DNA of 64,000 nt from Eledone cirrhosa (lineage: Eukaryota). Position 1 is the first letter of the stretch. Every line of letters starts with the position of its first letter. Shown in pieces: positions 2,662-59,355 of the stretch. The notes beneath the pieces were generated by a model that did not search any database, was not told where the DNA came from, and saw nothing but the letters and a program-made list of their open reading frames with translations. The translations under genes were made by a program, and so were the position numbers. The stretch spans positions 16,058,001-16,122,000 of the forward strand of contig OZ024764.1 in NCBI GenBank assembly GCA_964016885.1, given 5' to 3'.

Positions 2662-5638
2662 TCTTGCTGAGTGTTCACCCCTGGGTCTCCTGCCAGTTGG
2701 TTTGGCCAGTCTTGCTGAGTGTTCACCCCTGGGTCTCCTGCCAGTTGGTTTGGCCAGTCTTGCTGAGTGTTCACCCCTGGGTCTCCTGCCAGTTGGTTTG
2801 GCCAGTCTTGCTGAGTGTTTAGTCCTGGGTCTCCTGCCAGTTGGTTTGGCCAGTCTTGCTGAGTGTTTAGCCCTGGGTCTCCTGCCAGTTGGTTTGGCCA
2901 GTCTTGCTGAGTGTTTAGTCCTGGGTCTCCTGCCAGTTGGTTTGGCCAGTCTTGCTGAGTGTTTAGTCCTGGGTCTCCTGCCAGTTGGTTTGGCCAGTCT
3001 TGCTGAGTGTTTAGTCCTGGGTCTCCTGCCAGTTGGTTTGGCCAGTCTTGCTGAGTGTTTAGTCCTGGGTCTCCTGCCAGTTGGTTTGGCCAGTCTTGCT
3101 GAGTGTTTAGTCCTGGGTCTCCTGCCAGTTGGTTTGGCCAGTCTTGCTGAGTGTTTAGTCCTGGGTCTCCTGCCAGTTGGTTTGGCCAGTCTTGCTGAGT
3201 GTTTAGTCCTGGGTCTCCTGCCAGTTGGTTTGGCCAGTCTTGCTGAGTGTTTAGTCCTGGGTCTCCTGCCAGTTGGTTTGGCCAGTCTTGCTGAGTGTTT
3301 AGTCCTGGGTCTCCTGCCAGTTGGTTTGGCCAGTCTTGCTGAGTGTTTAGTCCTGGGTCTCCTGCCAGTTGGTTTGGCCAGTCTTGCTGAGTGTTTAGTC
3401 CTGGGTCTCCTGCCAGTTGGTTTGGCCAGTCTTGCTGAGTGTTTAGTCCTGGGTCTCCTGCCAGTTGGTTTGGCCAGTCTTGCTGAGTGTTTAGTCCTGG
3501 GTCTCCTGCCAGTTGGTTTGGCCAGTCTTGCTGAGTGTTTAGTCCTGGGTCTCCTGCCAGTTGGTTTGGCCAGTCTTGCTGAGTGTTTAGCCCTGGGTCT
3601 CCTGCCAGTTGGTTTGGCCAGTCTTGCTGAGTGTTTAGTCCTGGGTCTCCTGCCAGTTGGTTTGGCCAGTCTTGCTGAGTGTTTAGTCCTGGGTCTCCTG
3701 CCAGTTGGTTTGGCCAGTCTTGCTGAGTGTTTAGTCCTGGGTCTCCTGCCAGTTGGTTTGGCCAGTCTTGCTGAGTGTTTAGCCCTGGGTCTCCTGCCAG
3801 TTGGTTTGGCCAGTCTTGCTGAGTGTTTAGTCCTGGGTCTCCTGCCAGTTGGTTTGGCCAGTCTTGCTGAGTGTTTAGTCCTGGGTCTCCTGCCAGTTGG
3901 TTTGGCCAGTCTTGCTGAGTGTTTAGCCCTGGGTCTCCTGCCAGTTGGTTTGGCCAGTCTTGCTGAGTGTTTAGTCCTGGGTCTCCTGCCAGTTGGTTTG
4001 GCCAGTCTTGCTGAGTGTTTAGTCCTGGGTCTCCTGCCAGTTGGTTTGGCCAGTCTTGCTGAGTGTTTAGTCCTGGGTCTCCTGCCAGTTGGTTTGGCCA
4101 GTCTTGCTGAGTGTTTAGCCCTGGGTCTCCTGCCAGTTGGTTTGGCCAGTCTTGCTGAGTGTTTAGTCCTGGGTCTCCTGCCAGTTGGTTTGGCCAGTCT
4201 TGCTGAGTGTTTAGTCCTGGGTCTCCTGCCAGTTGGTTTGGCCAGTCTTGCTGAGTGTTTAGTCCTGGGTCTCCTGCCAGTTGGTTTGGCCAGTCTTGCT
4301 GAGTGTTTAGCCCTGGGTCTCCTGCCAGTTGGTTTGGCCAGTCTTGCTGAGTGTTTAGTCCTGGGTCTCCTGCCAGTTGGTTTGGCCAGTCTTGCTGAGT
4401 GTTTAGTCCTGGGTCTCCTGCCAGTTGGTTTGGCCAGTCTTGCTGAGTGTTTAGTCCTGGGTCTCCTGCCAGTTGGTTTGGCCAGTCTTGCTGAGTGTTT
4501 AGTCCTGGGTCTCCTGCCAGTTGGTTTGGCCAGTCTTGCTGAGTGTTTAGCCCTGGGTCTCCTGCCAGTTGGTTTGGCCAGTCTTGCTGAGTGTTTAGTC
4601 CTGGGTCTCCTGCCAGTTGGTTTGGCCAGTCTTGCTGAGTGTTTAGTCCTGGGTCTCCTGCCAGTTGGTTTGGCCAGTCTTGCTGAGTGTTTAGTCCTGG
4701 GTCTCCTGCCAGTTGGTTTGGCCAGTCTTGCTGAGTGTTTACCCCTGGGTCTCCTGCCAGTTGGTTTGGCCTGTCTTGCTGAGTGTTTAGTCCTGGGTCT
4801 CCTGCCAGTTGGTTTGGCCAGTCTTGCTGAGTGTTTAGTCCTGGGTCTCCTGCCAGTTGGTTTGGCCAGTCTTGCTGAGTGTTTAGTCCTGGGTCTCCTG
4901 CCAGTTGGTTTGGCCAGTCTTGCTGAGTGTTTAGTCCTGGGTCTCCTGCCAGTTGGTTTGGCCAGTCTTGCTGAGTGTTTAGTCCTGGGTCTCCTGCCAG
5001 TTGGTTTGGCCAGTCTTGCTGAGTGTTTAGTCCTGGGTCTCCTGCCAGTTGGTTTGGCCAGTCTTGCTGAGTGTTTAGTCCTGGGTCTCCTGCCAGTTGG
5101 TTTGGCCAGTCTTGCTGAGTGTTTAGTCCTGGGTCTCCTGCCAGTTGGTTTGGCCAGTCTTGCTGAGTGTTTAGTCCTGGGTCTCCTGCCAGTTGGTTTG
5201 GCCAGTCTTGCTGAGTGTTTAGTCCTGGGTCTCCTGCCAGTTGGTTTGGCCAGTCTTGCTGAGTGTTTAGTCCTGGGTCTCCTGCCAGTTGGTTTGGCCA
5301 GTCTTGCTGAGTGTTCACCCCTGGGTCTCCTGCCAGTTGGTTTGGCCAGTCTTGCTGAGTGTTTAGTCCTGGGTCTCCTGCCAGTTGGTTTGGCCAGTCT
5401 TGCTGAGTGTTTAGTCCTGGGTCTCCTGCCAGTTGGTTTGGCCAGTCTTGCTGAGTGTTTAGTCCTGGGTCTCCTGCCAGTTGGTTTGGCCAGTCTTGCT
5501 GAGTGTTCACCCCTGGGTCTCCTGCCAGTTGGTTTGGCCAGTCTTGCTGAGTGTTCACCCCTGGGTCTCCTGCCAGTTGGTTTGGCCAGTCTTGCTGAGT
5601 GTTCACCCCTGGGTCTCCTGCCAGTTGGTTTGGCCAGT
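2662..5638. repeat. 48-bp minisatellite, about 62 copies
   Basis: Unit TCTTGCTGAGTGTTTAGTCCTGGGTCTCCTGCCAGTTGGTTTGGCCAG. Confidence 0.97.
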
Positions 5639-6994: not shown

Positions 6995-7429
6995 GTTTTA
7001 TGCACACATTATGTATATGTATTAAACTGACACAATGTTTCACACAAAATATATGCATATATAAAGTGTGTATATCTTTATATAAGTATTTATATTTCAG
7101 GATTGAAGTCTGCTCAACATATATACACACACACAAACACACATTTATATATATATAATATATATAACAAACATTCACATATACACACAGACATATATAT
7201 ATATATATATATATATATCTATATATTTTTATAAACTTTTTAAACTCTACTTCCACTGACCATCTGCTATGAAAAGAGGGCTGGGATGGACCTTAAATTG
7301 CACTAACACTAACAGGAGACCCCTCTCTCGTGTCCAGTGTATCCTTTTAAATATCTCACCCCTCTAAAACCAATCAGGGCGTTGATGCCTGCTTCATTTG
7401 TTAATATTCTGTAGAACTGCAGGGACATC

Positions 7430-8031: not shown

Positions 8032-11000
8032 ATGGAGAGTTTACTTCGGGCTGTGTTGACCTCACCTTCAGACTTTCCCCCGCTGTCCAAAGTGGGCAAT
8101 GTCCAGCCCCCCAGACAGACTCACGCCACCAGTCCATATCTACACGCTGCCCTCACCACAGCTCTGCCCCACACACCTCATGTCAGCCCACCACTCACTA
8201 AACAGCGTTCTTCCCTCTCTGCTGACCCTGGCAAGGGACTGGGGGGACCTCAATTGAAGCAGAATGCTGGGGCACAGCTGGGACCACCAGCAGTTAAAAT
8301 CAAGGGTCGAGAAAACCAAAAGGACCCAGCCAAACAAATCTCCAACAGATACAGTAAACTTTTAGAGGCGTTGACCTCAGATTTCCAAGTCCCCGAGAAC
8401 TCCCTGCTGCATGTCACCTCCACCACCACCACCACTACTGCTGCCAACAACTCCACCCCCAGCTCACCGTCACCATCACCATCATTAATGTCAACAGCTG
8501 CATCTAGTTTGAGTAAGGGACGGCCCCCGGCAGCCCCTAACAGCCCACAATCAAATACTGCAGCAGCCCCGCCCTACAGGAGTAAGTTGTTCTTGGCCCT
8601 CACGTCTCCCCTTCAGCATTGGGACAAAGAATCTGTTAACCGCGAGAAGAATCGGCAGCGTTGTTGCCCTGGAAACACTACCTGTAATAAGTCAGCCATG
8701 AATAAGACAATCAAAGGGGTAAACGCAAGAAAGCCAGATCTGTTAAATGTATTGTTTCCAGTTGAGACTGACCTCTTGTATAATACACCCACAGTTGTTA
8801 AGCCAGAACTTCAGCCAACTGAGGCTGACCTCTTGTATAACACGCCCGAAGTTAAGCCAGAACTTCAGCCAGCTGAGACTGACCTCTTGTATAACACACC
8901 CACAATTGTTAAGCCAGAACTTGAGCCAACTGAAACTAACCTCTTGTATAATACTACTGCAGTTGTTGAGCCAACTGAGACTGACCTCTTGAATAATACA
9001 CCCACAATTGTTAAGCCCAAACTTGAGCTGGCTGAAACTGTCCTCTTGTATAATACCCCTGCAGTTGTTAAGCCAGAACTTGAGCCAACTGAGACTGACC
9101 TCTTGTATAACACACCCACAGTTAAGCCAGAACTTCAGCCGACTGAGACTGACCTCTTGTATAATACACCCACAGTTAAGCCAGAACTTCAGCCGACTGA
9201 AACTGACCTCTTATATAAAACCCCTGCAGTTGTCAAGCCAGAACTTCAGCCAGTCGAGACTGACCTCTTATATAACACACCCACAGTTAAGTCAGAACTT
9301 CAGCCGACCGAGACTGACCTCTTGTATAATACACCCACAGTTAAGTCAGAACTTCAGCCGACCAAGACTGACCTCTTGTATAATACACCCACAGTTGTTA
9401 GGTCAGACCTTCCAGAACAATCGTCTGGATGTCCATCACTGTCATTCCATTCGTCAGACAAAGACCTAAGTCCATGTTGTGAAAGTTCCGACTGCACTCA
9501 TGATGCACCCAAAAACAGGGGTCTGCCATCTCTGGCGTCTGCTTTGTTGCAACCACATCATAGAAGCAGCCAACAAGAAACGGATCGGAATTCTTTGGGA
9601 AGTTTTCATGAACATTCTCATGATGATGATGATGATGATTCTCAGTTACTTCCTAAAATTGCTGCAGATTTCAATCAGAAAACGAAGACAGAAAATACAG
9701 CATTCCAGGTGAGAAAATCTGATTCTGGGTACCAACAGGCCTCAATGTGTGGTATGGAGGCCCTCTCTGATTCTGGGTACCAACAGGCCTCAATGTGTGG
9801 TATGGAGGCCCTCTCTGATTCTGGGTACCAACAGGCCTCAATGTGTGGTATGGAGACCTTCCCTGATTCTGGGTACCAACAGGCCTCAACGTGTGATATG
9901 GAGGCCCTCTCTGATTCTGGGTACCAACAGGCCTCAATGTGTGGTATGGAGGCCCTCTCTGATTCTGGGTACCAACAGGCCTCAATGTGTGGTATGGAGG
10001 CCCTCTCTGATTCTGGCTACCAACAGGCCTCAATGTGTGGTATGGAGACCCTCTCTGATTCTGGGTACCAACAGGTCTCAACGTGTGATATGGAGACCCT
10101 CTCTGATTCTGGGCCTCAGCAGGCCTCAACGTATGGTATGGAGACCGTCTCTGATTCTGGGTACCAACAGGCCTCAATGTGTGGTATGAAGACCCTCTCT
10201 AATTCTGGGTACCAACAGGCCTCAACATGTGGTATGGAGACCCTCTCTGATTCTGGGCTCCAACAGGCCTCAACATGTGGTATGGAGATCCTCTCAGATG
10301 CTGCTATAGTTAGAAAAAATGACAGCCAAAAATCTACACTTTGTGCCAACAATTCAGTGAAAAGACAGTTAAATGGGGAGGATTTTGGCATGTGTAATGA
10401 AGGAAACTTTGTTAACTCTCCCACAAAATCAAAGCAGACAAACTTCCGACAGAAATTGCTAACACAGTTGAAATCTCGTTCAAGACCAACTGGAATCTCT
10501 GTTGCTAAAAAACGAAAATTTCTGGATTGCTGCAAAAGTAGGCTTGAAAATTCTGATCCCCTCTATTATGTGGAATCCTCAAGATCCTTTGTTGAAGACC
10601 TGGCATGTAAAAAACCCAAAGTAGGATTGGAAAATGTAAAGAAAGAAGACAGGTCTAGCTCTAATTCAGACAATCAAATCATAGCCAAGGAGAATTCCCC
10701 TTCGAGAATATTGTTGAAGAGTTTAGCTTCTAGTTGTGGAAACATTAGTGATGAGGGTAGCTGTGTTGATGGCCATACATCTAATATGGTTTTACAGAAG
10801 ACTTGTATAGACAATGGTGGTGATGGTAGCTGTGTTGATGGCCATACATCTAATATGGTTTTACAGAAGACTTGTGTAGACAATCATGGTAGTGATGGTA
10901 GCTGTGGTGGTGGTCAGATGACTTGTGCAGACAGTAATGGTGGTGATTCCTCCAAATATCATCTCTCCCAACCAACAGTAAACAATTCTGATGTCAACTT

Positions 11001-13026
11001 AGGTTGTAACTCTATGTTAAAGTCAGCACAGAACTCTTGCTCTTCAGTATCACTTTGGAAGAAGAATCTAGATGATAATATTAATAAAAATAACAAAAAC
11101 AATAAAGGTCCTGCTGTTAAATCCCAGTTCCTTCGAGCAGCTTTGACCTCTGCACCGATATCATTGCCCAAACCAAATAGAGTGCCAGCACCAACCTTTA
11201 ATGAGAAGCTGACTGCTGCGACAGCAGGTACATGTGGCTCAAAGAACCACTTCTTCGGCAACCAGTTGCGTTCGGCTAAGAAGGAAAGTCAAAATAAAAA
11301 TATTGTTGCTTGTAGCAGCGTATCTGATGGTTCGGCCAACAGACTAGCGGAGGAAAAGACGAGCAAATCGGCCACCGTGTCCAGGAAACGGTCTTCACGG
11401 CTGCTGGCAGCTGCTCTTTCTGCTGCGGATGATTTGAGGAAAATACCAGCATTAAAACCTGTCACAAAACAGACCAACTCTGAACTACTAAGGGCCGCTT
11501 TAGACAGCTCCGAAAAGGGAGACTCTCCAAGCTACCGCAGTAAACATTCACAGTTGCTGCGGGCAGCGCTCATTGCTGTCGACACCAACAAAGCTAATAA
11601 GGAGAAGACACAAGAAATGGGACCCAAATTCTCCAACTCGCGTCTTCTGCGTGCTGTGTTGACAGGCAAGTACAACCCTGAAACTGAAAGGTTTTGTCAC
11701 TCTAAATCCTCATTGAACATCCCTTTTCCCTCTTCTCCAATAAACCCTCTTGTGGTGAACAAGAGTGCATCTGAAAACAAGGTGGCTCCCCCTAGTGACA
11801 TATCGGTGAATACTTGTAACTCTCGAGCCAGCGGTCATTCTATATTACGAGCTGTCCTCACTGGCAATCTTGACATACCCCAGGGATCCAGGACAGCAGC
11901 TACCAGCTGCAAGAAGCCGACGCCATCTCCTGTGCGACGACAATCAAAGAGGCGGACGATAAGACGCGGGCACCTGGATTTCAAGTCAACCCATGGCAGT
12001 TCTTTTGGTGATGCCGATGACCAATTAGCAGGGCTAACATTTGGCTCTGTCAGCAAAAGTCCTCATCCTGAAATGTCTGTTATGTTGGTGAAAACCGAAC
12101 AATTTGAAGAAGCCAAGATTATTAGTGACCTGCATGAAAAAAAAGAGGAACTTAGAAATACTGAAACCGGGGTTGTTAGGGGCCTGGGTGAAAGGAAAGA
12201 GCAACTTAGAAATACTGCTGGTGACATGAGAAACGTAAAAACTGAAGGAGAGGCGGGTGAAGCCCTCAATGTGAAAATAACAGATGAATTCCGGCAAAAC
12301 AGTTGTGTTAGGAAAACGAAAAAGGATTTAGAGGGAAAAGAGGAATGTCTGTTTTGCGGTTGTGTCCATTCCAGCAACGACATCCTCTGGCCTTATATCA
12401 GCCTGTTTAGTGGGCCCAGCGCTGCAAATGAGGGTCAGCGCGGAGCCACAACAGCAGAGAACCAGCAATATCACTTCTGTCACGTGTGCCACCAAACTTT
12501 CAGTGCCTCGTGTCTCTTTCTGCGACACGTGGAGCTGCACTGTGACACCCGGACCAAGTTCCGCTGTGAGTTCTGCGGCCGGTATTTTGTGCACGTACTC
12601 TCCTACGTCATGTGTCGACTGTCGCACATGGACGCACACACGGGGGAGAGCAGTCTCGACCTAAAGAATGAGGACACCAACACCAACAACACCAGCCCCT
12701 CCATCAACAACAACAATACCTCCAACCCCACCATCAACAACACCAACACCACCTCCACCACCATCAACAACACCACCACCTCCATCAACAACACCAACCC
12801 CACCATCAACAACACCAGCCCCTCCATCAACAACACCAACCCCACCATCAACAACACCATCACCATCAACAACACCTCCATCAACAACAACAACAACAGT
12901 TATGATAATTGTGAGGAGAAAAGCGGTGTAGGTGGTGTAGGAATGTGTATTGTGAAAGGTGAGGACTGTTGGCTCTGCAGTAGCAATGCTGGTCCCATTC
13001 TGAGCCCTATAAACTTACCTTCATAA
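8032..13026 (+). CDS. Large single-ORF putative nuclear/transcriptional regulator: repeated LLRA[AV]L motifs, tandem repeats and C-terminal C2H2-like zinc fingers
   Basis: 5 kb stop-free ORF of mostly non-repetitive sequence. Contains CHVC-x12-H-x3-H and CEFC-x12-C-x3-H fingers (about 12478-12627) and basic NLS-like patches ([15 protein letters not shown]). Repeat-unit indels keep the frame. Upstream exons cannot be excluded. Confidence 0.8.
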
Positions 13027-13869
13027 CCAGACACACAGGTGAGGGTGGTGATGATAATGCCTTACCCTTGGGCAACATCGGTGGCCTAAAGAGGGGGGGG
13101 GGGACTGGTCTGTATTTGTAGGTTTGGTGGATGATTGCTGGCTCTCTGCTCTGCTCATCCACATTCCACTCGACAGAGTGAGACCCCCCCCCTTTCAGTG
13201 GAGTGGAGTGAAGTTGTCAAGTGAGACTTCCCTCGAGTGGAGTGGAGTTGTCAAGTGAGGATCCCCTTGTGTGGAGTGAAGTTGTCAAGTGAGACTTCTC
13301 TCGAGTGGAGTGGAGTAGTCAAGTGAGGATCTCCTTGTGTGGAGTGAAGTTGTCAAGTGAGACTTCCCTCGAGTGGAGTGGACTTGTCAAGTGAGGATCC
13401 TCTTGTGTGGAGTGAAGTCAGTTTAGTTATCAACAGATTGACCACAAAGCAGGTACTACTGTGGCCATGCTGGGGCATTAGACTGACCATGTCTTGCTCA
13501 TACCGGAGTGATTTTGGTTTGGTTTCTACAACTGGATGCCCTTCCTAACACCAACCACGTTTTTTGTCATGACCCCTACATGACCACTTTACAGTGAGTA
13601 CTGGGTGCTTTTTGTCATGACCACTTTACAGTGTGGACTGGGTACTTTTTGACATGACACCTACACAACCACTTTACAGAGTGGACTGGGTGCTTTTCTG
13701 TCGTGACACCTACACAACCACTTTGCAGTGGGAGGGCATACTGTGTATATGCTTCAGCTTCAGCTTGCACCCATGGGAAGACGTGTCTTCTGTATTACTG
13801 CGTAACGCCAGAGATCTTGGTCCTGTGTCATTGCATTTGAGAGGTGCAATTGGACAAGGTCAGCTTTTA

Positions 13870-21303: not shown

Positions 21304-24300
21304 TATATATAAGTCCAGAAATAGCCGTCGAAACGGCTTGAGTTCTGCCGTCGGGGTCTTAAATTTTCCTATGTATATATATATATATGTGTGTTTAACA
21401 AAGAGGGTGTGGTAAGGAACCAGCTGGACCATAACGCACCAGAGTACTCAATACTTTGGGTCGTAGAGTGGGTAATAGGAAAATAGCCAGGACCCCGACG
21501 GCTGAGCTCCTGCCGTTTCGACAGCTAGAATGTTGTGTGCGGTTGTATAGTATGGTGGTGGTGTGTTGAAGTGGTGATGGTGGTTGTGTGTTGAAGTGGT
21601 GATGGTGGTGGTGGTGTGTTGTAGTGGTGATGGTGGTGGTGGTTGTATAGTATGGTGTAGTGGTGGTGGTGTGATGTAGTGATGGTGGTGGTTGTGTGTT
21701 GTAGTGGTGATGGTGGTGGTTGTTGTTAGTATGGTGTAGTGGTGGTGGTGGTGTGATGTAGTGATGGAGGTGGTGGTGTGTTGAAGTGGTGATGGTGGTG
21801 GTTGTTGTTAGTATGGTGTAGTGGTGTGTTGAAGTGGGGATGGTGGTTGTGTGTTGAAGTGGTGGCGGTGATGGTGATTGTTAGTATGGTGTAGTGGTGG
21901 TGGTGGTGGTGGTGGTGTGTTGAAGTGGTGATGGTGGTTGTGTGTTGAAGTGGCGGTGGTGATGGTGGTTGTATAGTATGGTGTAGTGGTGGTGGTGTGA
22001 TGTAGTGATGGTGGTGGTGGTGTGTTGTAGTGGTGATGGTGGTTGTGGTTGTTAGTATGGTGTGGTGTAGTGGTGGTGGTGTGGTGTGGTGTGATGTAGT
22101 GATGATGGTGGTGGTGAAGTGTGACCCAATCCTAACATATCAGTCTTTACTGTTGTCTTCCATCGCTCCAGCATGGTCGTGTGAAGGTGCGAACAACAGC
22201 CGAACAGGCTGAATTGAAACGGAAAGAATGTGAGAAGAAACTCCAACTTTACAACGCAGCATTAAAAAAAATATTCAATAAGGTATGTAGATTCTCAAGC
22301 AGCCATCTGCTCCCTATTAATAGCAATGGTCCTTTTTTTCACACTTTTAACCCTTTAGCATTTACATTACTCTATATATACTATTGTATTGTCACAGTAA
22401 AGGCTTTACCTCACATAATATCTCACATAACATTTACATTACTCTATATATACTATTGTATTGTCACAGTAAAGGCTTTACCTCACATAATATCTCACAT
22501 AACATTTACATTACTCTATATATACTATTGTATTTTCACAGTAAAGGTTTTACCTCACATAATATCTCACATAACATTTACATTACTCTATATATACTAT
22601 TGTATTTTCACAGTAATGGCTTTACCTCACATAATATCTCACATAACATTTACATTATTCTATATATACTATTGTATTGTCACAGTAAAGGCTTTACCTC
22701 ACATAATATCTCACATAACATTTACATTACTCTATATATACTATTGTATTGTCACAGTAAAGGCTTTACCTCACATAATATCTCACATAACATTTACATT
22801 ACTCTATATATACTATTGTATTTTCACAGTAAAGGCTTTACCTCACATAATATCTCACATAACATTTACATTACTCTATATATACTATTGTATTGTCACA
22901 GTAAAGGCTTTACCTCACATAATACCTCACGTACCATTTACATTACTCTATATATACTATTGTATTTTGACAGTAAAGTCTTTACCTCACATAATACCTC
23001 ACATAACATTTACATTACTCTATATATACTATTGTATTTTCACAGTAAAGGCTTACCTCACATAATTATCTGCCAAGGGCACGACCGCAAACCTGTTGGA
23101 GAGCGACCGGTTCTTGCTTGTTTCCAACAGTTCATAACTTCAAAGCTAGATGGCATTACTAGTTTATTGATGTCACGTTTGTCAATCATTCAGATATGTG
23201 GTTAATAAATGTTTGTTTAAAAAAATAGTCATTTTACTGGAAAAGAACTGGCACAGCAACTGTAACCGTGTAAAATATACGCGGCAGTCAACACAGCAAC
23301 TGTAACCGTGTAAAATATACGCGGCAGTCAACACAGCAACTGTAGCTGTGTAAAATATATGCGGCAGTCAACAGGTTAATTGTAGCTGTGTAAAATATAC
23401 GCAGCAGTCAACAGGTTAATTGTAGCTGCGTAAAATATATGTGGCGGTCACCAGGTTAATTGTGAATTTTTTTTTTTATCCCTTTTTTTGTAGCGTAACC
23501 AGTCTATCTTTGATGAAGAGGGGCTGACCCTCTGCTCTGAAGTTCTCCTCGTCAACCCAGATTTCTACACCATGTGGAACTTCCGCAAGGAAATATTTGT
23601 CTTCTTTAAAGAGACAAAGTAGGTTTCTCTCTTTCTTTTCTCCCTCTCCCTTCTCTATTTCTCTCTCTGCTCTTTCTCGATAGACTGTGTCTGTATATAA
23701 GACAGGACACATTAGATAATGTAGTCCTAGGTAGACTGTGTCTGTATATAAGACAGGACACATTAGATAATGTAGTCCTAGGTACACTGTCTGTATATAA
23801 GACAGGACACATTAGATAATGTAGTCTTAGGTACACTGAGTTTGTATATAAGATAGGACACATTAGATAATGTAGTCCTAGATAGACTGTGTCTGTATAT
23901 AAGACAGGACACATTAGATAGTGTAGTCCTAGATACACTGTGTCTGTATATAAGACAGGACACATTAGATAATGTAGTCCTAGATACACTGTGTCTGTAT
24001 ATAAGACAGGACACATTAGATAATGTAGTCCTAGAGAGACTGTGTCTGTATATAAGACAGGACACATTAGATAATGTAGTCCATGATACACTGTGTCTGT
24101 ATATAAGACAGGACACATTAGATAATGTAGTCCTAGGTAGACTGTGTCTGTATATAAGACAGGACACATTAGATAATGTAGTCCTAGATACACTGTGTCT
24201 GTATATAAGACAGGACACATTAGATAATGGAGTCCTAGGTAGACTGTGTCTGTATATAAGACAGGACACATTAGATAATGTAGTCCTAGGTACACTGTGT

Positions 24301-27300
24301 CTGTATATAAGACAGGACACATTAGACAATGTAGTCCAAGATATACTGTGTCTGTATATAAGACAGGACACATTAGATAATGTAGTCCTAGGTAGACTGT
24401 GTCTGTATATAAGACAGGACACATTAGATAATGTAGTCCTAGGTAGACTGTGTCTGTATATAAGACAGGGCACATTAGATAATGTAGTCCTAGGTAGACT
24501 GTGTCTGTATATAAGACAGGACACATTAGATAATGTAGTCCTAGATACACTGTGTCTGTATATATGACAGGACACATTAGATAATGTAGTCCTAGATACA
24601 CTGTGTCTGTAGATAAGACAGGACACATTAGATAATGTAGTCCTAGGTACACTGTGTCTGTATATAAGACAGGACACATTAGATAATGTAGTCCTAGATA
24701 CACTGTGTCTGTATATAAGACAGGACACATTAGATAATGTAGTCCTAGGTACACTGTGTCTGTATATAAGACAGGACACATTAGATAATGTAGTCCTAGA
24801 TACACCGTGTCTGTATATAAGACAGGACACATTAGATAATGTAGTCCTAGGTAGACTGTGTCTGTATATAAGACAGGACACATTAGATATTGTAGTCCTA
24901 GATACACTGTGTCTGTATATAAGACAGGACACATTAGATAATGTAGTCCTAGATACACTGTGTCTGTATATAAGACAGGACACATTAGATAATGTAGTCC
25001 TAGATACACTGTGTCTGTATATAAGACAGGACACATTAGATAATGTAGTCCTAGATACACTGTGTCTGTATATAAGACAGGACACATTAGATAATGTAGT
25101 CCTAGATACACTGTGTCTGTATATAAGACAGGACACATTAGATAATGTAGTCCTAGATACACTGTGTCTGTATATAAGACAGGACACATTAGATAATGTA
25201 GTCCTAGATACACTGTGTCTGTATATAAGACAGAAGACATTAGATAATGTAGTCCTAGATATACTGTGTCTGTATATAAGACAGGACACATTAGATAATG
25301 TAGTCCTAGATACACTGTGTCTGTATATAAGACAGGACACATTAGATAATGTAATCCTAGATACACTGTGTCTGTATATAAGACAGGACACATTAGATAA
25401 TGTGGTCCTAGATACACTGTGTCTGTATATAAGACAGGACACATTAGATAATGTAGTCCTAGGTAGACTGTGTCTGTATATAAGACAGGACACATTAGAT
25501 AATGTAGTCCTAGATACACTGTGTCTGTATATAAGACAGGACACATTAGATAATGTAGTCCTAGGTACACTGTGTCTGTATATAAGACAGGACACATTAG
25601 ATAATGTAGTCCTAAGTAGACTGTCTGTATATAAGACAGGACACATTAGATAATGTAGTCCTAGGTAGACTGTGTCTGTATATAAGACAGGACACATTAG
25701 ATAATGTAGTCCTAGATACACTGTGTCTGTATATAAGACAGGACACATTAGATAATGTAGTCCTAGGTACACTGTGTCTGTATATAAGACAGGACACATT
25801 AGATAATGTAGTCCTAGATATACTGTGTCTGTATATAAGACAGGACACATTAGATAGTGTAGTCCTAGGTACACTGTGTCTGTATATAAGACAGGACACA
25901 TTAGATAATGTAGTCCTAGGTAGACTGTGTCTGTATATAAGACAGGACACATTAGATAATGTAGTCCTAGATATACTGTGTCTGTATATAAGACAGGACA
26001 CATTAGATAGTGTAGTCCTAGGTACACTGTGTCTGTATATAAGACAGGACACATTAGATAATGTAGTCCTAGGTAGACTGTGTCTGTATATAAGACAGGA
26101 CACATTAGATAATGTAGTCCTAGATATACTGTGTCTGTATATAAGACAGGACACATTAGACAATGTAGTCCTAGGTACACTGTGTCTGTATATAAGACAG
26201 GACACCCCACCACTACCACCACCACCACTACTACAACTACTAATGGTTTCCCCTATATTTGCAGATCTTCAGAAGAGGTGCAAGGTTTGTGTGAAGAGGA
26301 GTTGTCCTTCATTGAATCCTGCCTCCGGGTTAACCCCAAATCTTACGGGACCTGGCACCACCGTATCTTTGTCCAGGAGAACATACCAGAACCTCACTGG
26401 AACAGGGAGCTGCTGCTGTGTAACAAGTTCCTGGAGATTGATGAAAGGAATTGTAAGTATAGGTTGTAGTATAGTGTGGTGGGGGCTGTGTTGTAGTGTA
26501 GGTAGTGGTATAGTGTGGTAGGGTTGTGTTGTAGTATAGTGTGGTAGGGCTGTGTTGTAGTGTAGGTAGTGGTATAGTGTGGGAGGGTTGTGTTGTAGTA
26601 TAGTGTGGTAGGGCTGTGTTGTAGTGTAGGTAGTGGTATAGTGTGGGAGGGTTGTGTTGTAGTATAGCTGTGGTATAGTGTGGTAGGGCTGTGTTGTAGT
26701 GTAGGTAGTGGTATAGTGTGGGAGGGTTGTGTTGTAGTATAGTGTGGTGGGGCTGTGTTGTAGTGTAGGTAGTGGTATAGTGTGGGAGGGTTGTGTTGTA
26801 GTGTAGGTAGTGGTATAGTGTGGTAGGGTTGTGTTGTAGTATAGTGTGGTAGGGCTGTGTTGTAGTGTAGTTAGTGGTATAGTGTGGGAGGGTTGTGTTG
26901 TAGTATAGCTGTGGTATAGTGTGGTAGGGTTGTGTTGTAGTATAGTGTGGTAGGGCTGTGTTGTAGTGTAGTTAGTGGTATAGTGTGGGAGGGTTGTGTT
27001 GTAGTATAGCTGTGGTATAGTGTGGTAGGGTTGTGTTGTAGTATAGTGTGGTAGGGTTGTGTTGTAGTATAGTGTGGTAGGGCTGTGTTGTAGTGTAGTT
27101 AGTGGTATAGTGTGGGAGGGTTGTGTTGTAGTATAGCTGTGGTATAGTGTGGTAGGGTTGTGTTGTAGTATAGTGTGGTAGGGTTGTGTTGTAGTGTAGG
27201 TAGTGGTATAGTGTGGGAGGGTTGTGTTGTAGTATAGCTGTGGTATAGTGTGGTAGGGCTGTGTTGTAGTGTAGGTAGTGGTATAGTGTGGGAGGGTTGT

Positions 27301-45382: not shown

Positions 45383-48300
45383 CTGAAGAGAAAAGAAAAA
45401 TAGAAGAAAGGATGGTAATACTTCAAAAATTATTACTGCATTTCCCAGCATTGAAGACTGCTTTTTTCCTAAAATAAGTCTCAAAAATCTACCATGCATC
45501 CTGGAGGCCGAACGTTGTTCATTATTTTTTTTCAAAGGTGGTGGATTGGCAGTATCGGTAGAGGGTCGGATGCCATGCTTTGACGCATAGCGTTAGCCAT
45601 TCTGAGGTTAACTTTGCCTTTCATCCTTACAGGGTCGATAAAATAAAGTACCAGTAATGTACTGGGCTAATTGCTGGCCTTGTGCCAAAAGTAGAAACAA
45701 TTATTATTGTTTTAAGGGCAGTTGACTGGCAGTATTGGTGGAGGGTCTGACACCATACTTTGCAGCATAAAGTTATGGCCTTGTGCCAAAAGTAGAAACA
45801 ATTATTTTTTTTGAAATTTTTGGTTGTCAAAATTAGGGTCCGTCCTCGAGGACGAAGTATCTTTGGTGCCAGGAAATATGGTAATATTCTTTTGTTCTCT
45901 TCCTATTCACATAATTTCTGAGCTGACTAATTTAGTTATAAATATCTACAAATGGAAGCTATGGAGTAGGAAGACCCAGGAAGACTTGGGACGAGGTGAT
46001 AAAAGCTGACCCATAGGATGGAGATCTTTGGTGTTTTGCAGTAATACAGAGGACACGTCTTCCCATGTGCACAGACTCAAACATACCTAGTAGGCACCTC
46101 TTAACCACTATAAACCCACTACTCCTGTCCACACCACCTTTACACTGTGAACATTCATACATACATCCCATAATTTCTTTTTCACTTATATATAAGCATA
46201 TACAAACACAATACCTGTATAAAAGATAGGACACATTAAATAATGTAGTCCTAGGTACACTGTGTCTGTATATAAGACAGGACACATTAGATAATGTAGT
46301 CCTAGGTACACTGTGTCTGTATATAAGACAGGACACATTAGATAATGTAGTCCTAGATACACTGTGTCTGTATATAAGACAGGACACATTAGATAATGTA
46401 GTCCTAGGTAAACTGTGTCTGTATATAAGACAGGACACATTAGATAATGTAGTCCTAGATACACTGTGTCTGTATATAAGACAGGACACATTAGATAATG
46501 TAGTCCTAGATACACTGTGTCTGTATATAAGACAGGACACATTAGATAATGAAGTCCTAGATACACTGTGTCTGTATATAAGACAAGACACATTAGATAA
46601 TGTAGTCCTAGATACACTGTGTCTGTATATAAGACAGGACACATTAGATAATGTAGTCCTAGATACACTGTGTCTGTATATAAGACAGGACACATTAGAT
46701 AGTGTAGTCCTAGATACACTGTGTCTGTATATAAGACAGGACACATTAGATAATGTAGTCCTAGATACACTGTGTCTGTATATAAGACAGGACACATTAG
46801 ATAATGTAGTCCTAGGTAGACTGTGTCTGTATATAAGACAGGACACATTAGATAATGTAGTCCTAGATACACTGTGTCTGTATATAAGACAGGACACATT
46901 AGATAATGTAGTCCTAGATACACTGTGTCTGTATATAAGACAGGACACATTAGATAATGTAGTCCTAGATACACTGTGTCTGTATATAAGACAGGACACA
47001 TTAGATAGTGTAGTCCTAGATACACTGTGTCTGTATATAAGACAGGACACATTAGATAATGTAGTCCTAGATACACTGTGTCTGTATATAAGACAGGACA
47101 CATTAGATAATGTAGTCCTAGGTAGACTGTGTCTGTATATAAGACAGGACACATTAGATAATGTAGTCCTAGATACACTGTGTCTGTATATAAGACAGGA
47201 CACATTAGATAATGTAGTCCTAGATACACTGTGTCTGTATATAAGACAGGACACATTAGATAATGTAGTCCTAGATACACTGTGTCTGTATATAAGACAG
47301 GACACATTAGATAGTGTAGTCCTAGATACACTGTGTCTGTATATAAGACAGGACACATTAGATAATGTAGTCCTAGATACACTGTGTCTGTATATAAGAC
47401 AGGACACATTAGATAGTGTAGTCCTAGATACACTGTGTCTGTATATAAGACAGGACACATTAGATAATGTAGTCCTAGATACACTGTGTCTGTATATAAG
47501 ACAGGACACATTAGATAGTGTAGTCCTAGATACACTGTGTCTGTATATAAGACAGGACACATTAGATAATGTAGTCTTAGATACACTGTGTCTGTATATA
47601 AGACAGGACACATTAGATAATGTAGTCCTAGATACACTGTGTCTGTATATAAGACAGGACACATGAGACAATGTAGTCCTAGATACACTGTGTCTGTATA
47701 AAAGACAGGACACATTAGACAATGTAGTCCTAGATACACTGTGTCTGTATATAAGACAGGACACATGAGACAATGTAGTCCTAGATACACTGTGTCTGTA
47801 TATAAGACAGGACACATGAGACAATGTAGTCCTAGATACACTGTGTCTGTATATAAGACAGGACACATTAGATAATGTAGTCCTAGATACACTGTGTCTA
47901 TAAAAAAAGGATGGTTACAACTGGAACATCCTTGATCATAGGTCTGCTGGATCAAGGCTGACCAGGGGATAAATAATGACAGAATCAAATCAAACAATAT
48001 ACTCACTGCCATTTCAATTCTCTTCTTCCGTCTTACAACCTGCCGCATGCTGAGTTCTGAGGGTCGGCCATCTATGGAAGGGGGCAGAGAGAAGGACAAT
48101 AACAGGTTAGCTGGGATTTCAGTAGAAAAAGACGCAACATTACTACAATATATGTTGCTACTCACAGGTCCTAAATAATAGTGGGGGGGGGGGAATAAGC
48201 GGGAAGAGGTCGGTAATTTTTCTAGGCAACACACTAGGATCGACTTTCCCTTTTCTCCAAAAATTTGTTGGCCTTCAGTCTAAATCAGAAATTTATTATA

Positions 48301-58319: not shown

Positions 58320-59355
58320 TCAGATCCTGAACACTATAGATCTTTCCTGCAATCAGACCTGGACACAATCCAGCAATGGTTTATGGACTGGCAACACAAG
58401 CTGGCTGTGTATAAGTGTACCACCATGGATTTTGGGAGGCGAAACCCAGTGTCCACATACTCCCTCCACAACACTAATATCAAGAAGTCTTCTTGTGAAT
58501 GTGACCTGGGCATTACTGTCAGCAGTGATTTGCGTTGGACAAAGCACATCCCTAAAATTTTCAAGAAGGTCGAGGGTGTCTTAGCATCACTCAGCAAGAT
58601 CTTTGTCAGCCACTCTCCAGCTATCTATTTAAAGCTGTATATAGCTATGGTGTGGCCACACTTAGAATTTGTATCACCAGTCTGGAACCCCTATTTTGCT
58701 CAGAACATTAACCTCCTGGAAACCGTTCAGAGACATGCAACCAAGCGAATACTCTCCATCGGGCATCTACCATACTCTGAACGCCTTGCTTCCCTGGGTA
58801 TGGCTACATTGAGGCTCCAACATCTGGCAACTGACTTGTTAAAAACCCACAAAATTATTAACCATCTTGCCAACAACAACCCTGAGCACCTTTTTGAATT
58901 CCATGCCTACAAAGTCAGAAAACAGCACAGCTCCCATGACTTTAGGAAACATTTTTTCACGCTCAGTGTTGCTGAAGCATCGAACAAACTGCCTGCATCA
59001 GTTGTTAGCTGTCGAGACACTGCATCCTTTAAAACCTCCATGGAACAAACTACCTGCATCAGTTGTTAGATGTCGAGACACTGCATCCTTTAAAATCTCC
59101 ATTGAACAAACGACCTGCATTAGTTGTTAGCTGTCGAGACACTGCCTCCTTTAAAATCTCAATGGAACAAACTCCCTACATCAGTTGTTAACTGTCAAGA
59201 CACTGCATCCTTTAAAACCTAACACATGCACACATGTATATCATGACTCATACACTGTTCACTTTCCTGACATTTGTATACTATTCTATGTACTATACAT
59301 GCACCTTTGATGAGTTGTAGTGCACCTGAGTACTGTACACAATAATTTCATTATT
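58320..59355 (+). mobile_element. CR1/Jockey-group LINE 3' fragment (end of RT ORF plus 3' UTR)
   Basis: CDLGITVSSDLRWTKHI...LYIAMVWPHLEFVSPVWNPY...LETVQRHATKRI...FRKHFFT; four 61-bp terminal repeats; (ATT)n tail. Confidence 0.9.

Follow-up and report, generated by a model that had tools for sequence, protein, structure and literature searches.

A cephalopod C2H2 zinc finger gene of Eledone cirrhosa with ten conserved leucine motifs, a candidate multivalent co-regulator

What kind of protein is encoded by an uninterrupted reading frame of Eledone cirrhosa that repeats one short leucine motif ten times and ends in zinc fingers? The open reading frame (ORF; positions 8032-13026, + strand) spans 1664 codons without an internal stop, against 37-168 stops in the other five frames. 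It lies in a 64,000-nucleotide stretch of contig OZ024764.1 (assembly GCA_964016885.1, positions 16,058,001 to 16,122,000), hereafter the window, which is eukaryotic DNA rich in repeats. An initial annotation had reported this 1664-residue frame with ten motifs and no assignable family; the frame and all ten motifs are present where it placed them, and apart from generic C2H2 fingers, we likewise find nothing in it that matches a characterised family. Based on a comparison with its relatives, we assign the window protein to the C2H2 class, as a derivative of a C2H2 finger-array gene. We tentatively propose that in this octopod gene ten L-x-x-[A/V]-L-T helices would dock multivalently on the groove of a nuclear-receptor ligand-binding domain, the protein acting as a likely repressive co-regulator, a reading that we consider plausible but short of probable.

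A search with residues 1020-1560 of the window protein returned three proteins: orthologues from Octopus bimaculoides (A0A0L8H3A5, 1403 residues) and O. sinensis (LOC118768461, 1392 residues), and a distant relative, an ENA protein of 1171 residues (P0004), which probably comes from a more distant cephalopod. Compared overall with the window protein, they are 48, 47 and 31% identical, respectively. O. vulgaris CAI9744169 came from a cluster look-up, in which the one O. sinensis protein also has three RefSeq accessions (XP_036370911-3), suggesting transcript-supported isoforms that differ outside the coding region. The aligned set below consists of the window protein, O. bimaculoides, O. sinensis and P0004, and counts over five proteins add O. 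vulgaris. An orthologue search had been proposed at the outset as a check on the gene, and orthologues that retain the motifs are found in all three Octopus species. These share the start, the ten motifs and the finger module with the window protein; they lack its minisatellite expansions, have an extra motif near residue 130, retain a third intact finger and end in a tail about 190 residues longer. Their database labels are only uncharacterised or C2H2-type, and the gene is already in public databases as uncharacterised entries.

The ten motifs, all on the + strand, are retained in order across the four aligned proteins and fall into two clusters, four within the first 190 residues and six ahead of the fingers. 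Motif 1 (residues 1-11, 8032-8064, S-x-L-x-x-V-L class) forms the extreme N-terminus; because these first 11 residues, including the start methionine, are identical in 4/4 aligned proteins, the start codon is taken as correct and the coding region in the window as one exon. Motif 2 (residues 33-43, 8128-8160) is of the S-x-x-L-x-x-A-L class, and motifs 3 (residues 106-116, 8347-8379) and 4 (residues 182-192, 8575-8607) are of the S-x-L-x-x-A-L class. In the second cluster, motifs 5 (residues 1030-1040, 11119-11151), 6 (residues 1121-1131, 11392-11424) and 7 (residues 1149-1159, 11476-11508) are followed by motif 8 (residues 1172-1182, 11545-11577), with a conserved AVDTNKA stretch after it. 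Motif 9 (residues 1202-1212, in an element reaching residue 1214, 11635-11673) has a 10-residue end that is invariant in 4/4 aligned proteins, and motif 10 (residues 1268-1278, in an element reaching residue 1280, 11833-11871) closes the series. The consensus first given for them, SxLLRA[AV]LT, describes motif 9 exactly and none of the other nine; the core they share is L-x-x-[A/V]-L-T, its strictest common part being L-x-x-[AV]-L.

Two kinds of evidence argue that this core is under selection at the protein level. The pattern [LIF]LR[AE][AV]L is found 6 times where chance predicts 0.0012, and 0/5000 shuffles reach six; because the pattern was derived from the motifs themselves, conservation among orthologues is the fairer test. 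Motif positions are identical at 82/90 sites to each aligned Octopus protein and at 75/90 (83%) to P0004, finger positions at 56/73 (Octopus) and 41/73 (P0004), and ordinary linker, counted over aligned positions with gapped ones excluded, at 367/817 and 360/814 (Octopus) and only 167/666 (P0004, 25%). Among the motifs of the window protein, codon usage alone predicts 47.6 identical pairs in 212 pairs of codons for the same residue, and 49 are seen; in a 48-nucleotide (nt) repeat taken as control, 702 of 725 pairs are identical. Recent DNA duplication as the origin of the motifs was rejected on this result, since synonymous codons show no likeness in excess of codon usage; the copies are therefore old and their likeness is held at the protein level. 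The comparison thus bears out the earlier suggestion of selection and indicates that the motifs have been kept while linkers diverged. The linkers had also been called unrelated; between motifs 6 and 9 they are partly conserved in sequence and in length (22-31 residues).

A tally over 30 motif instances (the window protein, the Octopus protein P0002, and P0004) shows what is constrained. The leucines at +1 and +5 are invariant (30/30), position +4 is Ala in 21 and Val in 9, +2 is Arg in 18/30, +3 is Ala in 23/30 and +6 is Thr in 23/30. Serine stands at -3 in 16 instances and at -2 in 12 (28/30 together), and -1 is hydrophobic or aromatic in 23. The distance from motif 4 to motif 5 varies from 408 to 848 residues among the proteins, and single extra copies occur near residue 130 in Octopus (P0002) and near residue 470 in P0004. 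We also note degenerate motif-like stretches in the window protein at 9520-9546 (LASAL at residue 501) and 10699-10731 (residues 891-898); together with the lineage-specific copies they suggest that motif gain and loss are ongoing.

The motifs probably form short helices. In an AlphaFold2 model of the C-terminal cluster from three sequences, each of the six motifs, 5 to 7 among them, carries a helix and there is no tertiary fold (mean pLDDT 50, pTM 0.20). The term amphipathic that had been applied to all ten suits five, with hydrophobic moments in the 84th percentile or higher; those of the other five windows fall between the 10th and 58th. The helices might instead pack on each other or on the finger module as a small folded or self-associating unit. 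Small residues at +3/+4 would suit helix-helix packing, and spacing and some linker residues are conserved between motifs 6 and 9. We regard such packing as unlikely, however, with motifs spread over 1270 residues, a motif 4-5 gap that varies from 408 to 848 residues, single copies gained or lost between lineages and a monomer model at the low pTM just given.

The fingers suggest where the gene came from. A conserved finger-like element (12346-12408, +; CxxC, then H, L-W, Y and S-L-F, the two His ligands not at the usual places) precedes finger 1 (residues 1483-1503, 12478-12540, +), which has the C-x2-C-x12-H-x3-H spacing of C2H2 proteins and is present in 5/5 proteins. Finger 2 (residues 1512-1532, 12565-12627, +) is the atypical C-x2-C-x12-C-x3-H finger reported at first, and it is conserved in all five. 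Helix positions -1, 2, 3 and 6 are A, C, L and R in finger 1 (I/V, C, L and Q/R/D in relatives) and H, L, S and M in finger 2, invariant in 5/5; in the window protein these base-contact positions are mostly hydrophobic, and fingers 1-2 would suit protein contact better than base reading. In P0004 the finger-like element is followed by six tandem fingers, of which 3-6 are canonical, and by a distal C2HC finger. The Octopus proteins have fingers 1, 2 and 6 intact with remnants between them. In the window protein, fingers 1 and 2 are followed by an Asn/Thr-rich simple-repeat expansion (12674-12898, +) where P0004 has finger 3, then by a lone CxxC (12967-12978, +), a remnant of finger 4, 15 codons ahead of the stop. 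Pfam zf-C2H2 passes its cut-off in P0004 only, the window protein having no Pfam hit at E<=1; a PDB sequence search gave generic finger matches only (to E 9e-6), and a low-confidence model of the finger module (pLDDT 55) had no Foldseek match at E<=0.001. A tblastn search of the 64-kb window found neither remnants of later fingers nor a lost C-terminal exon elsewhere. Judging from the remnants, a long finger array appears to be the ancestral state, and the distal fingers appear to have been lost step by step, from six tandem plus one distal (P0004) to three (Octopus) and two (window).

Such losses could also mean that the E. cirrhosa gene is a decaying copy whose motifs are inherited and no longer in use, given four repeat expansions in the coding region, the missing distal fingers and a stop earlier than in Octopus. 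We hold this to be very improbable: the 5-kb frame stays open across expansions, the main repeat units of which have lengths divisible by three, and motif positions are identical to Octopus at 82/90 sites, compared with 45% for linker.

A more serious alternative takes the canonical fingers of P0004 at face value. The protein would then be a DNA-binding factor whose motifs are effector modules for a cofactor hub domain (Sin3 PAH or a KIX/TAZ/TAFH-type domain), in a role like that of KRAB in tetrapods. P0004 does carry a normal six-finger array. The motif cluster is basic (40 K/R versus 19 D/E), not like activation domains of the acidic type. A PAH2-type phi-phi-x-A-A core (phi, hydrophobic; PMC1557813) occurs in five motifs here and four per relative. 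Against this, the full PAH2 consensus (PMC1557813, PMC8657803) fits 0/10 motifs in any of the five proteins, the patterns applied being phi-x-x-phi-phi-x-A-A-x-x-phi, phi-phi-x-A-A-x-x-phi, phi-x-x-L-phi-x-phi-A and A[AV]x[VA][LV]. In the window species all motifs stay although the canonical fingers are gone. None of the 53 other finger proteins that our searches retrieved carries the motif, so it is not a family-wide effector. We consider this explanation possible, if rather unlikely.

Is the motif, then, a receptor-docking helix? The first reading had likened it to the LxxLL helices (NR boxes) of nuclear-receptor co-regulators, and as an identity this does not hold: canonical LxxLL occurs 0 times in 5/5 proteins, LxxML likewise, and +4 is Ala or Val in 30/30 instances. 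Because LxxLL is absent from all five, the gene does not encode an NR-box or RIP140 protein. What favours docking is a set of partial likenesses to known receptor-binding helices. NSD1 binds ER-alpha and LRH1 through SXLXXML (PMC3834829), a sign that receptors tolerate variants at +4. NR boxes and corepressor/nuclear-receptor (CoRNR) boxes occupy overlapping receptor surfaces (PMC12863189), and the corepressor CoRNR helix has an additional turn and runs into helix 12 (PMC7031403). The SMRT CoRNR peptide ends in IIRKALMGKY (PMC6925260), and motif 7 shares LLRxxLD with an NCOA2 NR-box peptide (PMC10297449). The end of motif 9 shares 5/10 residues (R, L, G, K and Y) with the SMRT peptide end, and motifs 1, 3, 4 and 10 have the S-x-L-x-x-phi-L spacing of NSD1. 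In the register that we assume, the extra CoRNR turn is N-terminal and IIRKAL overlays phi-LxxLL, with Ala at +4; on that register the octopus motif would resemble a CoRNR helix with the leading turn removed. Motifs 9 and 10 also match a relaxed CoRNR pattern weakly in another register, as L-x-x-V-L-x-x-x-[LIY] in 5/5 proteins (motif 10 with [LI] at the end, again in 5/5). The extended Lxxx(I/L)xxx(I/L) pattern matches motifs 2, 4 and 10 in the window protein and motif 10 alone in all five.

Several results, with the lack of LxxLL and LxxML, weigh against receptor docking. Strict CoRNR patterns, whether an (L/I)xx(I/V)I core or LxxI/HIxxxI/L, have 0 matches in 5/5 proteins. The relaxed CoRNR match is reached by 41, 18, 33, 38 and 5 of 1000 shuffles of the five proteins (P0001, 41; P0002, 18; P0004, 5), and 13 such matches occur among the 53 other finger proteins. 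In the PDB, a 25-residue query centred on motif 9 found no chain at E<=10, and a profile of the cluster found one unrelated chain, by chance, and no co-regulator peptide. The literature search found no report of a natural LxxAL or LxxVL as a receptor-docking motif; the one LxxVL case, in the excerpts available, is a motif inside the androgen receptor itself. The structure models are of low confidence. Sites of the form psi-K-x-E, to which we turn below, occur at about the same frequency in the set of 53 other finger proteins (91 in 33,713 residues). Finally, a motif from RNA decay, SxxLxxAL, is literally closer to five of the ten motifs than any receptor motif.

SxxLxxAL is the ligand motif of the human RBM7 RNA recognition motif (RRM) in the ASHI preprint (10.64898/2026.07.03.735260), where an alanine scan validated it and a ZFHX3 peptide served for a model. 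The octopus motifs might accordingly bind the RBM7 RRM and bring NEXT, a nuclear RNA-decay complex, to chromatin, a role suggested for that peptide. The pattern is exact in 5/10 motifs (0.11 expected, 0/1000 shuffles) and recurs five times per Octopus protein and three times in P0004. On the other side, it is defined by four residues only. The other five motifs deviate: Ser is one place nearer in four of the ten, Val replaces Ala in three, and the deviating motifs include the best conserved ones (1, 9 and 10). Two copies in P0004 have lost the Ser. ZCCHC8 normally sits on the helical face of the RRM. The published data concern a human domain in vitro, the preprint text examined describes no multi-copy array, and the one of its supplements that was searched has no RBM7 entry. 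We give this explanation a slim chance.

Other short-motif classes were tried and rejected. The NR2E/F motif of BCL11A and NSD1, F/Y-S-x-x-L-x-x-L/Y, has one match, motif 3 of the window protein only, which 68/1000 shuffles equal; in the relatives His replaces the Tyr. The APC/C D-box, which we take to be R-x-x-L-x-x-[LIVM], fits 1/10 motifs, a chance-level count. Pattern tests for the eh1, PxDLS, WRPW and PxVxL classes also failed.

Returning to nuclear-receptor docking, we envisage a long, likely disordered body carrying ten motifs that are predicted to fold as short helices, many of which would dock at once in a hydrophobic groove on a partner protein, most probably the one that receives coregulators on nuclear-receptor ligand-binding domains. 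Each motif would be weak alone, because Ala or Val stands for the +4 Leu, and ten copies in clusters of four and six would offset this through avidity. Fingers 1-2 would be used less for reading bases than for folding or contacts with proteins, repression would come from SUMO-consensus sites, and what began as a DNA-binding factor would be on its way to becoming a tethered co-regulator. The SUMO reading of psi-K-x-E, and the likeness of its proline-flanked form to synergy-control sites, are patterns that we assume. An in-frame 54-nt minisatellite of 11.6 copies (8763-9396, +) holds 9 of the protein's 14 psi-K-x-E sites, all nine proline-flanked; there is one proline-flanked site in the three Octopus proteins and none in P0004, and relatives have 4-5 psi-K-x-E sites in all (about 1.1 expected). 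Because other finger proteins show a similar frequency, only the expansion is unusual. A bolder version, which we think doubtful, is that cephalopods made a multivalent RIP140/NCoR-like nuclear-receptor corepressor from a C2H2 gene, with a new L-x-x-A/V-L-T code, a CoRNR helix cut short by its first turn that could leave helix 12 in place, and that octopods have been caught midway through losing the DNA-reading fingers while all ten docking helices stay.

How does this compare with known systems? RIP140/NRIP1, NCOA1-3 and DAX-1 also string many short leucine helices along a long low-complexity chain, with similar flanks (Ser, a hydrophobic -1 and basic residues), an architecture that for RIP140 we presume rather than cite. 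The trait of multiple short helices without a stable fold is seen here as well, in six helices of a low-confidence model. The window protein differs in having no LxxLL, always Ala or Val at +4, and zinc fingers, and phmmer, cluster-profile and PDB sequence searches found no homology to RIP140-type co-regulators. The proposed RIP140 likeness therefore survives for architecture only, the protein itself deriving from a C2H2 finger-array gene. With NCoR/SMRT it shares the phi-phi-R-x-[AV]-L register, the residues of motif 9 and the relaxed extended pattern of motifs 9 and 10; that register lacks the first Leu of LxxII, no strict match occurs, and a Pfam scan detected no SANT or other corepressor domain. 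We place the protein outside the LxxLL and NCoR families as one that likely works like a multivalent co-regulator.

Among cephalopod genes, the nearest comparison is with the expanded C2H2 genes (PMC12513265), which likewise have C2H2 fingers in an uninterrupted frame and, so far, cephalopod entries only; the window protein differs in the small number of its fingers and in a very long N-terminal region that bears the motifs. A term search of that paper finds none of the words effector, motif and cofactor, and the text examined of PMC10547256 names no octopus effector module. In vertebrates, C2H2 proteins are known as receptor cofactors (PMC6348741). The gene's reach is so far limited, provisionally, to cephalopod entries and P0004. 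A phmmer search of 1.84 billion representatives gave 55 hits, two of them true relatives and 53 found through the fingers only. A motif-cluster profile run against longer proteins recovered the same three relatives only, which is weak evidence as only 8000 candidates were scored. An N-terminal query against shorter proteins (0/121) and two metagenome scans (0/115 and 0/117) gave no relatives, the ESM Atlas no usable match to the motif cluster and only generic C2H2 matches to the finger module, and no paralogue turned up in these searches. A full-text literature search with gene accessions and motif strings returned one irrelevant match and otherwise nothing. Because the libraries searched cover animals thinly, the term cephalopod-specific is provisional; of the lineage-specific multivalent co-regulator first suggested, the co-regulator seems likely and the lineage limit stays conditional.

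The cephalopod C2H2 repertoire is very large, and excerpts of the literature searched name no effector module for it; the ten-copy motif of this gene, strongly conserved as it is, makes a ready bait for partner discovery. With a nuclear receptor as the partner, the gene would be a natural case of an LxxAL/LxxVL docking code and of a multivalent co-regulator that arose by convergence; with RBM7, a transcription factor would be tied to nuclear RNA decay. The six-three-two finger series would in turn capture a factor dropping its DNA-binding parts while its interaction motifs are retained.

As to the integrity of the locus, contigs from four runs of one study show 0 differences from the coding region in the pieces listed, and they extend over the stop codon. 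Since they appear to be genomic and may have served to build the assembly, they count against an assembly error and do not amount to independent support. No convincing splice joints were found in them, the joints seen linking simple repeats only. Two further coding features deserve mention. A basic cluster KKRK (residues 826-829, 10507-10518, +) resembles a nuclear localisation signal, its putative function, and is conserved in the Octopus proteins. An in-frame 48-nt minisatellite of 12.2 copies (9718-10303, +), not present in the aligned orthologues, yields 11 D-S-G-x4-S units, which we take to resemble a beta-TrCP degron variant; because they are absent from relatives, they are probably a by-product of the expansion.

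Around the gene, the ORF starts 25 bases downstream of a long (AT)n tract, ahead of which, about 660 bases upstream of the ATG, lies a stretch (7366-7382, +) that fits what we take as the CCAAT-box consensus and is a possible promoter element. A splice-donor-like CAG/GTGAGG (13036-13045, +), 12 bases past the stop, could mark an intron in the 3' untranslated region. At 2662-5638, a 48-nt tandem array of 62 copies with 98% identity, in which two minus-strand frames (1040 and 1018 residues) are open, looks like a young minisatellite. One 51-nt satellite unit forms two separate long arrays, at 23679-26205 and 46186-48048, where the repeat ORFs are spurious. Lastly, a 228-residue ORF at 58383-59069 (+) presumably resembles the C-terminal end of the reverse-transcriptase ORF of a long interspersed element (LINE).

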